Positions 1 to 7,120 of a stretch of DNA of 17,091 nucleotides are shown piece by piece. Source of the DNA: Fibrobacteria bacterium (GTDB lineage Bacteria; Fibrobacterota; Fibrobacteria; UBA11236); the NCBI GenBank assembly GCA_043732185.1, contig JAYTHY010000009.1, positions 1 through 17,091 on the forward strand, read 5' to 3'. Both the position numbers and the translations under genes were made by a program. Positions within the stretch are counted from its first letter, which is position 1; each line of letters starts with the position of its first letter. The notes below the pieces were generated by a model. The model was not told the DNA's origin and did not search any database. It was given only the letters and a program-made list of their open reading frames with translations.

Positions 1-2597
1 AGATTGTACCCGGCCGGCAGGATGAGATTGTCCCCGATGATTTTTTGGGCGTCTTCGATGTAGGTGCCGATGTCGATGCCTCGGATGTCTACGAACACCC
101 ACGCATTGGGCCGCGTGCCTTCCGTGCGGATGACCATGGGTCCGCGCGATGGTTCCAGCGTGGCGATTTGACCAAGCGGGACATGCTGGCCGGATGGAGT
201 GGGGACCAAAACTCTCTTTAAATCTTCGAGATTGTCCCGGAGTTCGCGGCTATAGCGTAGGCTGACCGGGTACCTTTCCAAGCCTTCCACCGTAGTCGTT
301 ATCGTCATGCCGCCCATGGCAGTGCGGATAACATTTTGCACATCTTCTACGCTGACGCCAAAGCGGGCAGCCTCTTCGCGGTTGATGCGTATATCCAAAT
401 AATTTCCGCCCACGGCACGCTCTGCGAATGCGGAAGTGGTATGCGGCACTTTGCGCATCAGGGCTTCAACCTCTTGCCCGATTTTTTGCAACGTATCGAG
501 ATCGGGTCCGGAAAGCTTGATGCCCACCGGCGTCTTGATGCCCGTGGACAACATATCCGTGCGGTTCTTGATGGGCATGGTCCATGAGTTGGTCAATCCG
601 GGAAATTGCAGGGCCGCGTCCATCTCCGTAATCAGACTGTCAACGGTTAGGCCTTTGCGCCAGGTCTTTTCTGGTTTGAGGCGAATGGTCGTTTCCATCA
701 TATCGAGACCGGCGGGATCGGTGGCCGTTTCCGCGCGACCAATTTTTCCGAACACCTGTTCCACTTCCGGAAAGGAGCGGATGATCTTGTCGGTTTGCTG
801 TAAGATTTCTTTGGACTTGGTCACGGATACGCCGGGCAATGTAGTGGGCATGTACAGCAAATCGCCTTCGAACAAGGCAGGCATGAATTCGGCTCCAAGT
901 TTTCCGAATGGAAAGGCCGTCAAAGCAACGGACAGCGCCGTCGCGGCCAAAATGGATTTTGGAAAGCGCAGGACAAAGTCTACCACGGGAGTGTATATCC
1001 GAATCAGAAATCGATTGATGGGATTTTTCCGTTCCGGTAGCAGCTTTCCACGTACAAAGAATCCGATCAGGATGGGAACCACCGTAATTGCCAAAAAGGC
1101 GGAGGCGGCCATGGAATACGTTTTGGTGAATGCTAATGGTCGGAAAAGCCTGCCGGCTTGGGCTTCCAAAGTGAAAACGGGTAGGAAGGATACGGTGATG
1201 ACGAGCAAGGACCAAAACAAGGTGGGACCCACTTCACAGGAGGCGTCCAGGATGATGGCCCAATGTTCCCGTCTATCCGCAGGTGGTTTTTCCGCTTCCG
1301 CTTCCATATGTTTATGGGCGTTTTCAATCAGGATGATAGCCCCGTCCACCATGGCGCCGATGGCGATGGCAATTCCACCCAAAGACATGATATTGGCATT
1401 GATACCCTGATACCGCATGACTAGAAAAGAAAGCAGGATGGCGGCCGGAAGTGTGAAGATGGCTACCAGCGCGCTGCGCACATGCAGAAGGAAAATCGCG
1501 CACACCAGGGCGACGATGAGCATCTCTTCCAACAGTTTATGTTTCAAATTGTCTACGGCTCTTAAGATCAATTGGGATCGGTCATAAGTCGGAACAATCT
1601 TTACATCTAATGGAAGTCCCGTTTTAAGCGTCTCCAATTTCTTACGCACCGCATCAATAACCTCCAAAGCGTTTTGGCCATAGCGCATGACGATGATTCC
1701 GCCTGCCACCTCGCCTTGCCCGTCCAATTCCGCAATGCCGCGCCGCATTTCCGGTCCGATGCTGATGTCGGCGATATCCTTCAAATAAATAGGGGTACCC
1801 GAGGAGCTACCCATGCTTTTTCCCGTCGTGTTTCCAACCGAGGATCCCGCGCCCATACTTAGCGGAATATTCTGGATATCCTCCAGACTTTTCAAGTACC
1901 CCAGTCCGCGAATCATGTACTCGGCTTCACCCATTTCAATGACTTCGCCGCCTGCGTCAGAATTGCCGTTTTGAATAGCCATGTCTACGTCCTTAAGCGA
2001 AAGGCCATAGGCATGCAGTCGAGTGGGATCCACGTTGACCTGGTATTGCTTGACAAAGCCGCCTATACTGGCGACTTCGCTAACGCCTTCAATGCTCGCC
2101 AATTGATATTTGAGGTACCAATCTTGAATGGATCGCAGCTCCTGCAACGATCGTTTTTCAGAAACCAAAGCGTATTCATATACCCATCCCACACCACTGG
2201 CATCCGGACCCAAAGTGGGCGTGACCCCTGGAGGCAAGCGCTTTTGGGCATAGTTTAAATATTCCAAGACGCGGCTTCTGGCCCAATAGATATCAGTGCC
2301 GTCTTGGAAGATGATGTAAACCAGGGAATAGCCAAAAAAGGAATACCCCCGCACTACTTTGGCTCCCGGCACCGAGACCATGGAAGTGGTCAAGGGATAG
2401 GTGACTTGATCTTCGATGATGCGCGGGCTTTGTCCCTTGTGTTCGGTATAGACAATGACCTGTACATCGCTTAAGTCAGGGAGGGCGTCGATGGGGGTGC
2501 TTAGCAAAGCATGCGTTCCAAAGCCCATGGCTACGGCACCCAGTAGAAGCACCAGGATTTTATTTTTAAGGGACCAGGTGATGAGTTTCTCTAGCAT
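1..2597 (-). CDS. cusA: CusA/CzcA-family heavy-metal (Cu+/Ag+) RND efflux permease; 3' end lies outside the window
   Basis: Not in the ORF track because there is no stop in the window. Manual translation from ATG 2597 gives MLEKLITWSLKNK...TPIDALPDLSDVQVIVYT...GQSPRIIEDQVTYPLTT...DIYWARSRVLEYL...NIMSLGGIAIAIGAMVDGAIILIEN...EGDLLYMPTTLPG...DPAGLDMMETTI...NRTDMLSTGIKTPVGIK...LPAGYN, in one frame to the edge. The three Met residues matching the E. coli CusA metal triad (M573/M623/M672) are present. AGGCGG precedes the ATG. Confidence 0.95.
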   Translation of the reverse strand, partial: MLEKLITWSLKNKILVLLLGAVAMGFGTHALLSTPIDALPDLSDVQVIVYTEHKGQSPRIIEDQVTYPLTTSMVSVPGAKVVRGYSFFGYSLVYIIFQDGTDIYWARSRVLEYLNYAQKRLPPGVTPTLGPDASGVGWVYEYALVSEKRSLQELRSIQDWYLKYQLASIEGVSEVASIGGFVKQYQVNVDPTRLHAYGLSLKDVDMAIQNGNSDAGGEVIEMGEAEYMIRGLGYLKSLEDIQNIPLSMGAGSSVGNTTGKSMGSSSGTPIYLKDIADISIGPEMRRGIAELDGQGEVAGGIIVMRYGQNALEVIDAVRKKLETLKTGLPLDVKIVPTYDRSQLILRAVDNLKHKLLEEMLIVALVCAIFLLHVRSALVAIFTLPAAILLSFLVMRYQGINANIMSLGGIAIAIGAMVDGAIILIENAHKHMEAEAEKPPADRREHWAIILDASCEVGPTLFWSLLVITVSFLPVFTLEAQAGRLFRPLAFTKTYSMAASAFLAITVVPILIGFFVRGKLLPERKNPINRFLIRIYTPVVDFVLRFPKSILAATALSVALTAFPFGKLGAEFMPALFEGDLLYMPTTLPGVSVTKSKEILQQTDKIIRSFPEVEQVFGKIGRAETATDPAGLDMMETTIRLKPEKTWRKGLTVDSLITEMDAALQFPGLTNSWTMPIKNRTDMLSTGIKTPVGIKLSGPDLDTLQKIGQEVEALMRKVPHTTSAFAERAVGGNYLDIRINREEAARFGVSVEDVQNVIRTAMGGMTITTTVEGLERYPVSLRYSRELRDNLEDLKRVLVPTPSGQHVPLGQIATLEPSRGPMVIRTEGTRPNAWVFVDIRGIDIGTYIEDAQKIIGDNLILPAGYN

Positions 2598-2608
2598 GGT
2601 TTGACCGC

Positions 2609-3946
2609 CTATTTTCCGGCATTCATGGTGTGTGAAGACGAGGTATCGGACATTGGATTTTCCGCTGGGTCCCGGGCTCTCATCTGCTGGATGGCCGACT
2701 TGAGGTTGCTTTCCGAATCGATCAAGAACTGGGAAGAGATGACCAGCATTTCTCCTTCCGCTATTCCGGACAGCACCTCTACATAATTTCCTGCCACCTG
2801 TCCGAGTTCCACTTCACGCGGTTCAAAGTATCCGTCTCCGGTGGAGAGGACAGCGATGTTGCGACGACCAGACCTTATGATGGCTTGATCTGGAACCGCA
2901 ATGACATTTCGAAGTGATGGGGAGAGGATGCGAACCGTGGCGAACATCTCCGGTTTCAAATCGAGGGATGGTGTATTTACAATTTCGATCCGTACTTCCG
3001 CCGTTTTGCTTACTGGGTCGAGCACGGGTGAAATAAAAGTCACTTTGCCTTTAAAGGGTTTGCTTTGGCCATAACTGAGCTGGACCTCAGCCATGGAGCC
3101 CAGCTTGGCAGTGGCTACATCCCGCTGATAAATACTGGCTACCACCCAAACACGCGACAGGTCCGCGATGCGATAGAGCAGCATGCCCGCCATAATATTT
3201 TGACCCTCCACCACCATTTTTTCCAAGACTACGCCCGTAGCTGGAGAGAGAATGGAAAGCGTATTGCGTGCTTTGTCCTGCTTCTCCAAAGCCTGTATTT
3301 CATTTTCAGAAATACCCCAGTTAAGTAGTCGCCGCCGTGCGCTTTCCACCAAATCGTTGGATCCGGTTCCCGGATTTCCAACTGTCGATTTGGAATAGTG
3401 CAAGGCCGTCAAATACTCTTCTTGCGCGCTCACTAAATCGGGGCTGTAAAGTTCAAGCAGGCTCTGGCCCTTTTTGACCAGCGCTCCAGTGGTGTTCACT
3501 TTTAGTTTTTCCACATAGCCCATCACGCGGGCGTTGACGATGAAAAGTCGGCTTTCATCTACCTGCACCTTGCCACTGCTGCGGATTTCGGTTTGCAAAT
3601 CCCTTCGGGAAACCAATTCTGTTCGGACCCCCATGTTCTGCACAGTAGTCGGATCGATATGCACATTATTGGTTTGCTTTTCCTTATTGTCAGTCTGCGC
3701 GGCCCCATCTTTTTCGCTAGCCTTGGTCATTGGAACCAGTTTCATGCCACATATGGGGCAGTTGCCGGGTTTGTCCGATATGTAATTGGGGTGCATGGCG
3801 CAGTGATACATGGTTTTGGCTTCTATCGGATCATGCCGCTCCGCCGTTGTCGGGGATTTCAAGGCATGACTGTTCCAAAACCATCCGCCCCCAAAGAGCG
3901 CCATAACCAGGATTGCAGCCAGGGATAATTTTATTGTGGTATTCAT
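2609..3946 (-). CDS. cusB: CusB-family RND periplasmic adaptor with N-terminal heavy-metal-binding domain
   Basis: 445 aa. N-terminal membrane anchor; YHCAMHPNYISDKPGNCPICGMKLVP metal-binding motif; CusB motifs LYSPDLVSAQEEYL, IADLSRVWV, LKPEMFA, SQFLIDSESNL. ATGA overlap with the upstream gene. Confidence 0.93.
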   Translation of the reverse strand: MNTTIKLSLAAILVMALFGGGWFWNSHALKSPTTAERHDPIEAKTMYHCAMHPNYISDKPGNCPICGMKLVPMTKASEKDGAAQTDNKEKQTNNVHIDPTTVQNMGVRTELVSRRDLQTEIRSSGKVQVDESRLFIVNARVMGYVEKLKVNTTGALVKKGQSLLELYSPDLVSAQEEYLTALHYSKSTVGNPGTGSNDLVESARRRLLNWGISENEIQALEKQDKARNTLSILSPATGVVLEKMVVEGQNIMAGMLLYRIADLSRVWVVASIYQRDVATAKLGSMAEVQLSYGQSKPFKGKVTFISPVLDPVSKTAEVRIEIVNTPSLDLKPEMFATVRILSPSLRNVIAVPDQAIIRSGRRNIAVLSTGDGYFEPREVELGQVAGNYVEVLSGIAEGEMLVISSQFLIDSESNLKSAIQQMRARDPAENPMSDTSSSHTMNAGK

Positions 3947-5280
3947 TTTCCATCTCCTAGGGATAGTGCGTTGGAAATTTCTTCCAGATTCAGTCCAACG
4001 GCTTCTTCCAATTCCGCTTGACTGACCATGAGTTGCATCAGTGACATTTGTGAATTTTCTTTGGCCATGAGGCGCATGCGATAGGCATCGATAAGTCCCA
4101 TGAACTCACCTTTACCACCTTGATAGGCGGCCAAATTGGACTCCAACGCTTGCTGGGATTGAGGTAAAAGGATGTCCCTAGACAGGCGCAATAATTCCCC
4201 GGTACTTTCAGCTTTCAGCAGCGCGCCTTGAGCCCGGGCATATGCCATATTTTCTGCGTCCGTGTAGTCCATTCTTGCCTGCTCCAGGTTTGCGGCGCTT
4301 TGCACATCCAGTGCTCGGTATTTTGGTAGTGACCAGAGTGCAAAGGGAATATTCATGCTCGCCATCACAGACCAGTAATTTTCAGGTGGACCGGAACTAT
4401 GCGATCCGGAGGTGGATTTGAGCATATCCTTAAACATGCCTCCCACCATGATATCTGGTAGAAGATCTTTTCTGACCAACTTCTTTTCCGCTACGCGCAT
4501 TTGGATATTCGCTTCCATGCCTTGCAATTCAGGATGAGATTTTTTTACTAAGGGCCGAAGTTGATCCAAGTTCCAGTTCACGAGCGCGGGTATTAGCGTG
4601 TCCGTTACGGAAATGGCGGCGGCTGTTTTACGATTGAGCAAGGAATTCAGCATGGATTCCATACTGCGCCTTTCTTGGACAAGAAGGATGGAATCCGATT
4701 TTAGATTTGTGGCTTCTGTCTGGGCACGTAGGATATCCGCTTGCCTACCCATTCCTACTTCGTATTGCCTACGCGCCACTTCGATCAGCCGCGCCATGAG
4801 AGATTGATTCTCCCGATTGATTTCGAGCCTTCGATCCAAGAGGTACAGTTCATAGTAATAGGACTTGACAGCCAATATGGTTTTCCGTTTGCGCACTTCC
4901 AAATCCGCTTCTGCCATTGAGGCATGAGTATGCTCGGCATTGATACGCGCTGAAATTTTGCCCGGAAAGGGAAAGGCTTGCTTGACGGAGTAATCGATTT
5001 CCATCTGGTTTTTAAGTGGATTTGGGAACGAGGCTGTTGGAGTTTGGTAAAAATCGACCCCAATTTCTGGTGGCTCCAGGGACCAGAAGTGATCACTAGA
5101 AGAATGCATCGACTTGGCCCGAAACTCTAGAGCTTTAAGTCCGGGATTATTTTGCACCGCTTCAGCGACTAGGCTGGAAAGGGATTCTGAATCGCTCCAA
5201 CCCATGGCCAGTCCGATAGCTATTCCAAAAAACACACGGAGTAATGGTAATCGTTGCATAAAATTTGGTAATCGTTGCAT
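3943..5280 (-). CDS. TolC/CusC-like outer membrane efflux protein of the heavy-metal RND operon
   Basis: OEP features: LVAEAVQNNPGL, QAFPFPGK, RRQYEVGMGRQADILRAQ, ILLPQSQQALESNLAAYQGGKGEF. Start placed at ATG 5280 because GAGAAGGA lies just upstream and a signal-peptide-like stretch follows. The ORF track start is TTG 5343, and ATG 5259 is an alternative. Confidence 0.88.
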   Translation of the reverse strand: MQRLPNFMQRLPLLRVFFGIAIGLAMGWSDSESLSSLVAEAVQNNPGLKALEFRAKSMHSSSDHFWSLEPPEIGVDFYQTPTASFPNPLKNQMEIDYSVKQAFPFPGKISARINAEHTHASMAEADLEVRKRKTILAVKSYYYELYLLDRRLEINRENQSLMARLIEVARRQYEVGMGRQADILRAQTEATNLKSDSILLVQERRSMESMLNSLLNRKTAAAISVTDTLIPALVNWNLDQLRPLVKKSHPELQGMEANIQMRVAEKKLVRKDLLPDIMVGGMFKDMLKSTSGSHSSGPPENYWSVMASMNIPFALWSLPKYRALDVQSAANLEQARMDYTDAENMAYARAQGALLKAESTGELLRLSRDILLPQSQQALESNLAAYQGGKGEFMGLIDAYRMRLMAKENSQMSLMQLMVSQAELEEAVGLNLEEISNALSLGDGK

Positions 5281-5283
5281 AAA
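5245..5283. repeat. 18-bp perfect direct repeat with 21-bp period (TGGTAATCGTTGCATAAA x2) at the TolC/CusC start
   Basis: Copies at 5245-5262 and 5266-5283. On the minus strand it encodes FMQRLP twice. Confidence 0.9.
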
Positions 5284-5388
5284 GGGAATCCTTCTCAATT
5301 TTATCCATGGACGTAGCGGGACATCTGAGCCTTGCCACGCCAAAAAGGGCGCGCAGACTGGTAAAACCTTGGGATGGGGGCCGCGACA

Positions 5389-5432
5389 AACTTCCGGAGG
5401 AAGTTCACGGCAGGAATTCTAAATCAGAATTC
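5389..5432 (-). promoter_or_regulatory. Two small hairpins at and just after the stop codon of the leader ORF
   Basis: AACTTCC-GGA-GGAAGTT at 5389-5405. GAATTCT-AAATC-AGAATTC at 5414-5432, overlapping the TAG at 5419-5421. The inverted repeats are seen directly; function is inferred. Confidence 0.4.
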
Positions 5433-5853
5433 GACGTTGTGTGAGGTAAAGAGGAGGGTCAGATGCGGAGCGAAGTTCAGATCGATTAGGAGAAGCGGGA
5501 AGGTCGATGACGGCTATAGGTAAAACGCGAACAACCCATTCAGGCAAACTTGGAGCCAATACCATTTCCGATGGAATTTGTGGCAACCGCTGATTGGCAT
5601 CTTGAATGCAACACTCTTTATGTTGCGAGGGATCGGATTTTGAAGCATGGTCGCTGCCGGCTGTTTTAGCTGGCTTTGGGCAACAGAAGTGGGCGGGAGC
5701 CTGGGCGATTTTCTCTGACGTGAATGCCGTAGCTAAGAATTGGCCAATCCGCTGATTGACGAGACAGCAACTGAATATCTGGCTTCCGAGGAAAACCAAC
5801 ATCAAAACCATCGCCATGGTTTGTTGATACCGATGCAAGCGTTGCCGAATCAT
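5419..5853 (-). CDS. Small Cys-Cys/Pro-Pro membrane-targeted protein; putative metal-sensing leader (uORF) of the cus operon
   Basis: 144 aa from ATG 5853 (the ORF track extends to 5922). Basic N-terminus and hydrophobic segment (MAMVLMLVFLGSQIF), then SCC, HFCC and HKECC, and a Pro-rich C-terminus ending DPPLYLTQRRILI. First gene of the operon. Confidence 0.75.
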   Translation of the reverse strand: MIRQRLHRYQQTMAMVLMLVFLGSQIFSCCLVNQRIGQFLATAFTSEKIAQAPAHFCCPKPAKTAGSDHASKSDPSQHKECCIQDANQRLPQIPSEMVLAPSLPEWVVRVLPIAVIDLPASPNRSELRSASDPPLYLTQRRILI

Positions 5854-5859
5854 ACCAAT

Positions 5860-5868
5860 AATATACCA
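5860..5868 (-). promoter_or_regulatory. Putative extended -10 promoter element (TGgTATATT) 6 nt upstream of ATG 5853
   Basis: Minus strand reads GA-TG-G-TATATT-ATTGGT-ATG. There is no convincing Shine-Dalgarno and no good -35 at 17-bp spacing, which fits an extended -10 leaderless transcript. Confidence 0.5.
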
Positions 5869-6040
5869 TCCCGCAAGTTCAATTCGTACCTGTTTTGACG
5901 ATTTGGCAGCAAGAAAGGGCAAAGCTGTCCTTTACTCGCGAATTTTCAAGATCAAGGCCCGGGTTTTCTATTTTAGATATTCGATTGAATTGAATTCCCG
6001 TTTCGAAAATGTCATTCCGAAATATCGGAAGGAGTTGCCG

Positions 6041-7120
6041 TTGTCCAAGGCCACTAATCGAACTCTTGTTGCGCTCGTCACCATAGTCCTGGTGGGCTTG
6101 TTGGCCTACCCCAAACTAAAGTCCAAAACACCTGCCCCTGGCGCCGCCGCCATGGGTGGAAAACCGGGCGGACCGGGGGGAACGCCTCCGTTACCGGTTA
6201 CCGCCAGAATAATTCGACCCCAGCGCCTGGATAATCGGATTTCCAGTACCGGAACTGTAATGGCCAATGAGGAAGTGGAGATTCGCAGCGAAATATCCGG
6301 CAAAATACTACACATCGGCTTTAAAGAAGGCAGCAAAGTTTCCAAAGGTGATTTGTTAGTTAAAATCGACGATAAGGAATTGCAAGCCAATATTCTCAAA
6401 GCCCAGTCCCAACGAAAGTTGGCCGAGGACAATGAGTACCGCATGCGCATGCAGCTCAAAATCGAGGCGGTGAGCCAAAAAGATTTCGACCAAGCGTTGA
6501 ACGAACTAAATCTGGCCAAGGGTGGCGAACAGGTGCTGCGCGCCCAATTGGATAAAACGGAGCTGCGGGCCCCTTTTTCAGGCGTAGTCGGCCTCAAGGA
6601 TGTTAGTGAGGGCGCATTAGTCGGACCTGCGACTCGGATCACCACCTTACAGGAGATTAATCCAGTCAAAGTGGACTTTTCTATTCCTGGAAAGTATGCG
6701 GGTTGGGTCAAGACCGGAACGCCAATCACCTTTACCGTGCAAGGATCGGATAAGAAACAAGTAGGAAAGGTGTATGCGTTGGATCCAAAAATGGACCCGG
6801 AAACTCGTTCCCTGCATTTGCGCGCACTCTGCCCTAATGCGGACGGCCTTGTCCTGCCTGGCGCCTTTGCTGCCGTGGACGTGCCATTGCAGGTGGTCGA
6901 CTCCGCTTTGCTTATTCCCACCGAGGCCATGACCGCCGATGGTCGAGGGGCCAAAGTCTACCTTTACCGGGGAGGTAAAGCCGATCCCGTGCAGGTCCAG
7001 GCCGGGCTCCGTACGGACTCGTTGGTGCAGATTACCAGCGGTTTAAAATCCGGTGACACGGTTCTTACTTCTGGCATCATGCAAATCCGCCCAGGCGCAC
7101 CTGTCACATTATTGCCATGA
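6041..7120 (+). CDS. RND efflux periplasmic adaptor subunit (membrane fusion protein)
   Basis: Motifs GTVMANEEVEIRSEISGKI, FKEGSKVSKGDLLVKID, ELRAPFSGVVG, GLKSGDTVLTSG; N-terminal TM helix. Start placed at TTG 6041, 6 nt after AAGGAG (6029-6034). The ORF track start is 5903. Confidence 0.92.
   Translation: MSKATNRTLVALVTIVLVGLLAYPKLKSKTPAPGAAAMGGKPGGPGGTPPLPVTARIIRPQRLDNRISSTGTVMANEEVEIRSEISGKILHIGFKEGSKVSKGDLLVKIDDKELQANILKAQSQRKLAEDNEYRMRMQLKIEAVSQKDFDQALNELNLAKGGEQVLRAQLDKTELRAPFSGVVGLKDVSEGALVGPATRITTLQEINPVKVDFSIPGKYAGWVKTGTPITFTVQGSDKKQVGKVYALDPKMDPETRSLHLRALCPNADGLVLPGAFAAVDVPLQVVDSALLIPTEAMTADGRGAKVYLYRGGKADPVQVQAGLRTDSLVQITSGLKSGDTVLTSGIMQIRPGAPVTLLP

Follow-up and report, generated by a model that had tools for sequence, protein, structure and literature searches.

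How a bacterium adjusts the output of a copper efflux pump when no regulator gene stands beside the pump operon is the question raised by contig JAYTHY010000009.1 of a Fibrobacteria bacterium, the whole of which (17,091 bases; the window) was analysed. A cus-like efflux operon on its reverse strand is headed by a small open reading frame (ORF; 5419-5853, hereafter the leader ORF), for which a preliminary description had proposed a role as a metal sensor acting as a nascent chain on the ribosome. To our knowledge, CutF and CruR are the only proteins for which experiments have shown that a nascent exported chain senses metal post-transcriptionally, and both carry proline-rich motifs at the end of the ORF. 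We give about an even chance to the reading that the leader ORF, with a sequence family of its own, falls into the CutF/CruR functional class as a metal-sensing leader that acts in cis, is exported during its translation and would decide the expression of the cusCBA-like genes behind it. The evidence that points to this comprises the position of the family at the head of operons, fixed distances towards the stop codon together with peptide-level selection on the tail, the sharing of this tail ahead of different downstream genes, a model that past the N-terminal helix shows no confident fold, a long C-rich intergenic region with a hairpin in a genome that encodes Rho, metal motifs that are swapped between paralogues, and a genome without CueR, CsoR or above-cut-off CusS-type matches.

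Sequence features and conservation of the leader ORF

Translation confirmed the ORF and the features that had been noted in it. All six cysteines are paired and CxxC is absent, the pairs being located at residues 29-30 (nucleotides 5764-5769), 57-58 (HFCC, 5680-5685) and 81-82 (HKECC, 5608-5613). The C-terminus reads DPPLYLTQRRILI followed by the stop; its Pro-Pro occupies residues 133-134, which are the 12th and 11th when counted back from the last residue. In a 30-sequence alignment of the family, Q25, C29, C58, C81, P133 and P134 are invariant and C30, H55, C57, C82, P91, P101, L137 and L143 are at least 90% conserved, which indicates that the features of the leader are more than chance. 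A basic N-terminus with a cytoplasmic part of only ~12 residues is followed by a hydrophobic segment (residues 13-32), and AlphaFold2, run with the family alignment, places a helix over residues 2-46 (block predicted local distance difference test, pLDDT, 79-94), in agreement with the Sec- or membrane-like N-terminus first described. Past this helix the model has no confident fold, with a mean pLDDT of 69, a predicted TM-score of 0.29 and block pLDDT of 54-67 over residues 41-100. A longer version of the ORF starting at TTG 5922 was rejected, as a conserved -10-like element would then fall within the ORF and the homologues begin at the ATG.

Comparison with two close orthologues gave a ratio of non-synonymous to synonymous differences per site (pN/pS) of 0.19 for the whole ORF, 0.05 for the N-terminal helix, 0.35-0.37 for the middle and 0.06 for the last 16 codons. 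In these 16 codons, 7 synonymous changes stand against 1 non-synonymous change. Such a low pN/pS at a pS of 0.51 shows that the tail is constrained as a peptide and not as RNA.

Fixed distances between the last Cys pair, the Pro-Pro and the stop codon

Spacing was measured in a 68-sequence family alignment, in which 61 sequences have equivalents of both C82 and P133. In 41 of these sequences the two residues are 51 apart, and in 59 the distance falls within 50-53 (standard deviation 2.3), which makes a 51-residue ruler; the two linkers upstream of C82 vary from 14 to 64 residues (standard deviation 7.7) and from 16 to 63 (7.6). From P133 to the last residue there are 11 positions in 60 of the 61 sequences, and a cruder count finds ten residues after the PP in 38 of 43. 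Conservation of the PP-to-stop spacing among homologues upstream of pump genes had been put forward as a check on the leader hypothesis, and it is borne out by these counts. The family consensus of the tail, S-[SG]-P-P-x-Y-L-x-x-L-R-L-L-I/V and then the stop (SDPP in the analysed ORF), is always located at the extreme C-terminus, with aliphatic last residues. The 10 residues behind the PP are conserved as strongly as the PP itself. Stalling at the PP codons alone fails to account for these 10 residues and for the exact distance to the stop, which would favour retention of the ribosome at the stop codon. A conserved spacing between metal motif and PP has been reported as a hallmark of CruR/DUF2946 (PMC9426467).

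Distribution, genomic contexts and paralogues

A word-indexed search of 5.8 billion proteins returned 6 relatives of the leader protein and phmmer, run exhaustively over 1.84 billion cluster representatives, returned 30. Matches are present in 31 of 296 Fibrobacterota genomes, tallies that include one unpublished genome (G011), and in 26 of 31 other genomes of the host's own taxonomic family. The family is small and almost confined to one Fibrobacterota family. In the ESM Atlas the nearest clusters are unnamed, and the nearest named one, a possible relation, is DUF8199 (PF26622, score 0.94).

The contexts were surveyed over 5-6 kb around the family matches, with downstream ORFs labelled by phmmer against the pump proteins of the analysed contig and of C46, another contig of the host genome (G000). 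The next ORF on the same strand is OEP-like (outer-membrane efflux protein) in 39 of 47 loci and the resistance-nodulation-division (RND) gene itself in 2, both Fibrobacteria loci; 2 loci end too early, and the other 4 have an insertion-sequence (IS)-like gene, unknown ORFs or a fragment match. Genomes often hold several paralogues. Contig C46 (L041: 2544-3014, 4265-4529, 7385-7870; L114) carries three further copies or remnants, among them a His-rich paralogue with the motif HHCHGHEVH, a single Cys at the position of the third Cys-Cys and a tail that reads SSPPIYLLTLRILV before the stop. This paralogue heads an operon for an OEP, a membrane fusion protein and an RND pump, which continues into a beta-propeller gene, two multicopper-oxidase-like genes and a DUF3347 gene. 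The other members on C46 are a complete copy followed by an IS630-like helix-turn-helix gene and an 87-codon N-terminal fragment. The metal motifs differ by paralogue type, with CC in type A and HxHCHGH in type B, and both types head copper-linked operons.

A degenerate pattern of the tail, scanned against one genome per prokaryotic species, was found in 13 places, of which 8 are in Fibrobacteria, 2 are genuine ORFs outside this group and 3 are chance matches. Both outside ORFs are small, exported and Cys-rich; one, in a Terrimicrobiaceae metagenome-assembled genome, ends in HGPPLYLLQLRLLI and the stop 88 nt ahead of a CusB-like gene with HMBD and HlyD domains, and the other, in a Burkholderiales metagenome-assembled genome, ends in GPPPYLKQLRLLI and the stop ahead of a SCO1/SenC gene. 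The same tail thus precedes OEP, adaptor, RND and SCO1 genes in three phyla, suggesting that the ribosome or the translocon is a likelier partner of the tail than a pump subunit. A second pattern, for tails ending in V, gave 10 places, 3 of them family members (L105 and L111, labelled Fibrobacteria and accepted as members from their records, and L112, labelled 'uncultured bacterium', which is a contig of G268); 8 of the 10 places were inspected and 7 are chance matches.

The intergenic region behind the leader

The region between the leader and the pump genes is unusually long for an operon, with 138 nt at this locus and a median of 137 nt (range 72-285) over 38 loci with heuristic start calls. 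Over its first 100 nt the C/G ratio is 1.32 here and above 1.2 in 31 of the 38 loci, with a median of 1.40 for the intergenic regions vs 0.95 for the OEP coding sequences. Rho is encoded in the host genome (664.7 bits, above cut-off), and two requirements of a TnaC-type, Rho-dependent system, a long C-rich and G-poor spacer behind the leader and Rho itself, are therefore seen. The 50 nt past the leader stop fold with a z of -4.7 relative to shuffles at this locus; over 40 family loci compared with dinucleotide shuffles the mean z is -2.07, with values below -1 in 34 and below -2 in 18. The first paired base is at +4 to +11 in 33 of the 40 loci, behind a C-rich spacer of the [A/C]AUCCC type. 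Shuffles were made for each sequence, because a 6-sequence MAFFT alignment left the hairpins out of register.

Absence of a local regulator

The lack of an adjacent regulator, with a divergent RND pump upstream, had been part of the preliminary description and is upheld for the whole contig, which holds no regulator gene; the upstream neighbour is a divergent operon of the multidrug RND type. Of four neighbourhoods examined in orthologous loci, three include an adjacent P1B-type ATPase that carries HMA or YHS/HMBD domains, and three have no regulator next to the operon. The host genome is 100% complete by marker genes. In it, CueR has no match at E<=1e-5 and CsoR none at E<=1e-3, and the best CusS-type kinase match reaches 148.6 bits, below the cut-off of 292.55, despite the presence of at least two copper-linked RND operons.

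Comparison with known leaders and accessory proteins

Small exported ORFs with a PP tail at the head of copper RND operons, the class to which the leader ORF would belong, have already been catalogued in a published bioinformatic study. The catalogue comprises 5,334 'CutF-like' proteins defined by rules and grouped in 29 clusters (Ozturk et al. 2023, PMC9973294), reported to come mostly from Pseudomonadota and Bacteroidota, to have an RND-associated OEP as their commonest downstream neighbour and, for the most part, to be followed by intergenic regions of <100 nt. By the filters as given in that report, the leader ORF falls within the class: it is shorter than 150 residues (144), has PP in its last 15 residues (-12, -11), and is followed on the same strand by a gene less than 1000 nt away (138). 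As to the signal-peptide filter, the basic N-terminus, the hydrophobic segment and the modelled helix make up a putative export signal, which may be cleaved or lipidated.

CutF of Rhodobacter capsulatus (PMC9973294; bioRxiv 10.1101/2025.02.05.636593) is likewise a small exported protein with a Cys metal motif and a C-terminal PP, encoded by the first gene of a copper operon, and its logic of metal induction suits an efflux or detoxification system. As described in these reports, CutF carries CxxxC and a C-terminal PPP, senses periplasmic copper during export by the signal recognition particle and Sec, and opens a stem-loop over cutO's ribosome-binding site. In contrast, the leader has CC pairs, and where the PPP of CutF is two residues from the end, the PP of the leader is followed by the conserved 10-residue tail. 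The leader family also differs in its ~137-nt intergenic region, in which no consistent stem-loop shielding the ribosome-binding site was found, in its location in Fibrobacterota and in an mRNA predicted to be leaderless, and there is no detectable sequence homology between the two.

CruR (Bp2923 of Bordetella pertussis; PMC9426467) is similar in being an upstream ORF that combines an export signal with a metal motif, between which motif and a C-terminal PP the spacing is conserved. CruR is reported to carry CXXC and, three residues from its end, RAPP, with a conserved spacing of 45 residues, and Rho terminates transcription in a 162-nt intergenic region, comparable in length to the 138 nt found here; copper relieves the stalling and represses an importer. 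The leader differs in its CC and SDPP motifs, in the 10-residue tail behind the PP, in its target, which is an exporter, and in its spacing, with 50 intervening residues (distance 51) vs 45 in CruR, where the last Cys and the first Pro are 48 apart.

Two further systems are comparable in part. In its proposed logic the leader resembles TnaC of the E. coli tna operon (treated in part in PMC9973294), where the ribosome is retained at the leader stop in a ligand-dependent manner, conserved residues lie ~8-12 from the C-terminus, and the stalled ribosome blocks Rho-dependent termination in a long spacer. However, TnaC has 24 residues, is cytoplasmic and senses free tryptophan in the tunnel, whereas the leader has 144, is predicted to be exported and would sense metal outside the ribosome. 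CzcI of Cupriavidus metallidurans (PMC9973294) is small as well, its gene lies directly upstream of a czcCBA-type RND operon, and a role as a regulator that senses metal has been proposed for it; it is reported to lack a C-terminal proline motif, and no sequence relation to the leader was found.

Proposed mechanism

In the favoured reading, the nascent chain would be threaded through the Sec translocon, and binding of Cu or Ag to the Cys motifs that have emerged would delay the ribosome in leaving the end of the ORF. The pause could occur at the PP, but we favour a pause at the stop codon, when the exit tunnel would contain the entire PPxYLxxLRLLI tail. The leading edge of such a ribosome would abut the hairpin past the stop and the start of the C-rich, Rho-accessible spacer. 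A lingering ribosome would thus cover the beginning of the intergenic region and prevent Rho-dependent termination or premature folding, allowing transcription and translation of the pump genes. In the absence of metal the ribosome would leave and the operon would be attenuated. This arrangement would be TnaC-like, gated by metal on emerged Cys or His motifs.

A more specific and rather unlikely version holds that the tail is a hitherto undescribed ribosome arrest module acting at termination. It would make the family an exported equivalent of TnaC under metal control, found in three phyla or more and combined with interchangeable Cys or His sensors. With the ribosome held at the stop, 10-11 residues would separate the peptidyl-transferase centre from the PP, which would lie at the constriction of the tunnel. 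At 62 residues back, the last conserved Cys pair would by then be newly exposed on the periplasmic face of the translocon, and metal bound there would determine whether the ribosome is retained. A retained ribosome would abut the hairpin 4-11 nt past the stop and mask a Rho loading region.

Points against the leader reading and alternative explanations

Several results weigh against a cis-acting leader of the CutF/CruR class. The preliminary description had drawn a CutF/CruR-like layout and a resemblance to HYC_CC_PP, with searches against the latter and DUF2946 as checks. The layout stood in its export signal, Cys motif, C-terminal PP and position at the operon head, but neither DUF2946 membership nor a RAPP-like core was found. 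Against the Pfam DUF2946 model (PF11162) the leader protein scores 13.1 bits (E = 0.17; gathering score 23.7), only 1 of 68 family members (30 + 38 scanned) matches at E<=1, and hhalign of the family (30 or 68 sequences) with 37 Fibrobacteria DUF2946-like proteins, 5 of which carry PF11162, gives probabilities of 1-3%. HYC_CC_PP (NF047658, cut-off 28 bits) matches 0 of 30 members at E<=1; its sole match in the host genome, of 12.7 bits, is in an unrelated place, and no family locus was matched. The name of the HYC_CC_PP family implies the order His-x-Cys, CC and PP, to which H-x-C-C, CC and PP correspond in the leader family. Homology was thus rejected for DUF2946 by model and profile tests and for HYC_CC_PP by model tests. 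Additionally, the RAPP-like arrest core, defined as Arg-[Ala/Gly]-Pro-Pro/Gly (Morici 2024; Fujiwara 2025), is absent as R[AG]PP from all family tails listed, and the leader lacks both the Arg of this core and the PPP of CutF; an AAPP variant is reported as an arrest-defective control (Fujiwara et al. 2025, PMC12992588).

At the RNA level, predicted pairing of the pump Shine-Dalgarno sequence is inconsistent over 11 orthologues, the main partner being the ORF tail in 3, the intergenic region in 4 and coding sequence located downstream in 4. A modelled ribosome that masks RNA has little effect on Shine-Dalgarno accessibility, and RNAalifold finds no consensus pairs in a 12-sequence orthologue alignment. 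An intrinsic terminator behind the leader was rejected, with 0 found vs 1.9 expected in shuffles and U-tracts absent in most orthologues. The fourth orthologous neighbourhood has a histidine kinase 1.5 kb off, the host genome has 40 histidine-kinase-like matches, and a distant transcription factor may control the operon. Stalling, attenuation and the metal response are themselves proposals read from sequence, and the fixed-length conserved C-terminal segment could instead be part of a mature protein whose folding requires metal or a partner.

The main rival, which we consider possible though doubtful, is that the ORF encodes a stable, membrane-anchored or lipidated periplasmic metal-binding accessory protein. 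As a chaperone, as a sponge or as a modulator resembling CzcI, it would work in trans and either pass metal to the pump or sense it. CusF is a small periplasmic protein encoded in such efflux operons and provides a precedent, as does CzcI (PMC9973294). Purifying selection over the whole ORF, including the export helix, conserved blocks such as CCIQDANxxLPQxPSE that reach beyond the needs of a tunnel-resident arrest sequence, and block pLDDT of 75-82 for residues 101-120 of the model all speak for such a protein. In some members, moreover, the first invariant Cys is preceded by residues that resemble a signal-peptidase site or lipobox (VMAC, AAGC; also IFSC), and the mature protein, if it exists, might be a lipoprotein with an N-terminal Cys-Cys. 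However, the leader protein has no confident fold and no match to CusF, another chaperone family or any other Pfam or NCBIfam entry, and the occurrence of this tail ahead of OEP, CusB-like, RND or SCO1 genes opposes a single docking partner. An accessory protein also leaves unexplained the exact 10-residue distance to the stop and the long structured intergenic region in place of tight operon coupling.

Location of the motif at the extreme C-terminus, with its aliphatic ending (LLI/ILV), would also fit a signalling peptide controlled by proteolysis, in which a periplasmic PDZ or tail-specific protease would recognise the hydrophobic C-terminus as its ligand or as a degron, and metal binding would alter the turnover of the peptide. 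The periplasmic part is predicted to be disordered, and CutF is reportedly degraded rapidly in the periplasm. This explanation is nevertheless improbable, with a cytoplasmic part of about a dozen residues and no obvious output domain, no linked protease or sigma/anti-sigma gene, and no account of the 51-residue ruler or of the intergenic features. We think it similarly improbable that the leader ORF is an ordinary first gene whose spacings reflect protein structure only, with metal control exerted wholly by a distant transcription factor at the promoter. A palindrome-rich divergent promoter region of 180 nt lies upstream, and the histidine-kinase-like genes mentioned above, including the one near an orthologue, would supply candidates. 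Against this stand the genome without CueR, CsoR or above-cut-off CusS-type matches, the neighbourhoods without a regulator and the long intergenic region with its conserved hairpin.

Novelty and significance

The preliminary description knew of no described case in such a lineage. This holds in part, since the catalogue of 'CutF-like' proteins already lists RND-OEP neighbours, whereas the word 'fibrobacter' has no match in the main text of PMC9973294 and the small part of its supplement covered has no match to the tail or the phyla. Literature on HYC_CC_PP, on CutF and CruR since 2023 and on arrest-peptide upstream ORFs of copper efflux yielded no description of the tail. What is new in the leader family is the longer, strictly positioned tail, the CC or His motifs, the 51-residue ruler, the long structured intergenic region and probable leaderless expression. 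The family is a sequence-unrelated and well-delimited test case ahead of the commonest predicted target, a heavy-metal RND pump, and offers sharp falsifiable parameters in its ruler, its tail and its post-stop hairpin, as well as natural paralogues with other metal motifs. If the tail is an arrest sequence, a non-RAPP motif joins the repertoire and copper efflux control in Fibrobacterota is explained; if it is not, the family represents an unstudied periplasmic copper-handling protein.

Operon genes, promoter and further observations

The preliminary assignment of the ORF to the head of a cus-like operon agrees with the three genes that follow on the same strand (Table 1), although the adaptor scores 184 bits against NCBIfam CusB, under the cut-off of 390.

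Table 1. Features of the leader ORF and the efflux operon, with positions in the window
Feature	Positions	Strand	Remarks
Leader ORF	5419..5853	-	144 aa; ATG 5853; span includes stop codon 5419-5421
Hydrophobic export segment	5758..5817	-	residues 13-32; last residues include first Cys-Cys (5764-5769); Q25, C29 invariant
H55-F-C57-C58 motif	5680..5691	-	H55, C57 >=90% conserved; C58 invariant
Third Cys-Cys, C81-C82	5608..5613	-	opens conserved CCIQDANxxLPQxPSE block; start of 51-residue ruler
Pro133-Pro134	5452..5457	-	invariant
10-residue tail LYLTQRRILI	5422..5451	-	family consensus x-Y-L-x-x-L-R-L-L-I/V, then stop
Extended -10-like promoter element TGGTATATT	5860..5868	-	ends 6 nt before ATG; read from sequence
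C-rich intergenic region	5281..5418	-	138 nt, leader stop to likely OEP start
Stable hairpin	5380..5411	-	begins 8 nt past stop, behind C-rich spacer AATTCCT (5412-5418)
Shine-Dalgarno-like GAGAAGGA of OEP gene	5289..5296	-	read from sequence; GAAGGA kept 8-10 nt before start in orthologues
Outer-membrane efflux protein, CusC/TolC type	3943..5280	-	Pfam OEP, E = 4.2e-35; likely ATG 5278-5280
CusB-like membrane fusion protein with heavy-metal-binding domain	2609..3946	-	HlyD_D23 2.3e-71; HMBD 4.4e-12
CusA/CzcA-family RND pump	3..2597	-	TIGR00914 975 bits vs cut-off 701; runs off contig end

Of the 11 type-A orthologues, 10-11 show by eye a TGnTATATT-like element that ends 6 nt ahead of the candidate start, as do many type-C genes, and the first cistron is probably leaderless or nearly so. 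Type-B (His-rich) genes have the hexamer ~19-20 nt upstream, followed by a GAAGGA-like ribosome-binding site. TGnTATATT recurs in the lineage, where it reads as a spurious 'WYI' in over-extended gene calls and as 'DWYIL' in one DUF2946-like protein. Fibrobacteria also own canonical DUF2946/CruR-like small ORFs of the form CQLC...SRAPPSA and stop (L007 1492-1890, reverse strand; P0052-P0088). These have an invariant CxLC and SRAPP two residues from the stop, and form a separate family that is not alignable with the leader family.

Rfam gave 0 matches at E<=1 over 5150-6100. An 8-bp hairpin across the leader stop (5414-5432, reverse strand; GAAUUCUG-AUU-UAGAAUUC) is specific to the analysed locus. 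The equivalent codons of G008 and G002, both close orthologues, are GAAUCCUU, the exact complement of AAGGAUUC in the OEP ribosome-binding region. A role of the ORF tail as an anti-Shine-Dalgarno (GAAUCCUU with AAGGAUUC in G008) was rejected, as it is inconsistent across orthologues and the synonymous changes in the tail oppose constraint at the RNA level. Read-through or fusion between leader and OEP was also considered, the two frames being in phase here with no stop between them, but this is true in only 5 of 47 loci and the idea was rejected.

Just ahead of the OEP start, a block CCATGGAT..AAAT[T/C]GA(G)AAGGA (5289-5310, reverse strand) is kept in several type-A orthologues, and in the analysed contig it closes a 7-codon mini-ORF, MSRYVHG and stop. 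The start of the OEP gene (5238-5280, reverse strand) contains a 15-nt tandem duplication, ATGCAACGATTACCA occurring twice, 21 nt apart. This gives MQRLPNF-MQRLPLL and two possible start codons, and the duplication is present in the G008 orthologue too.

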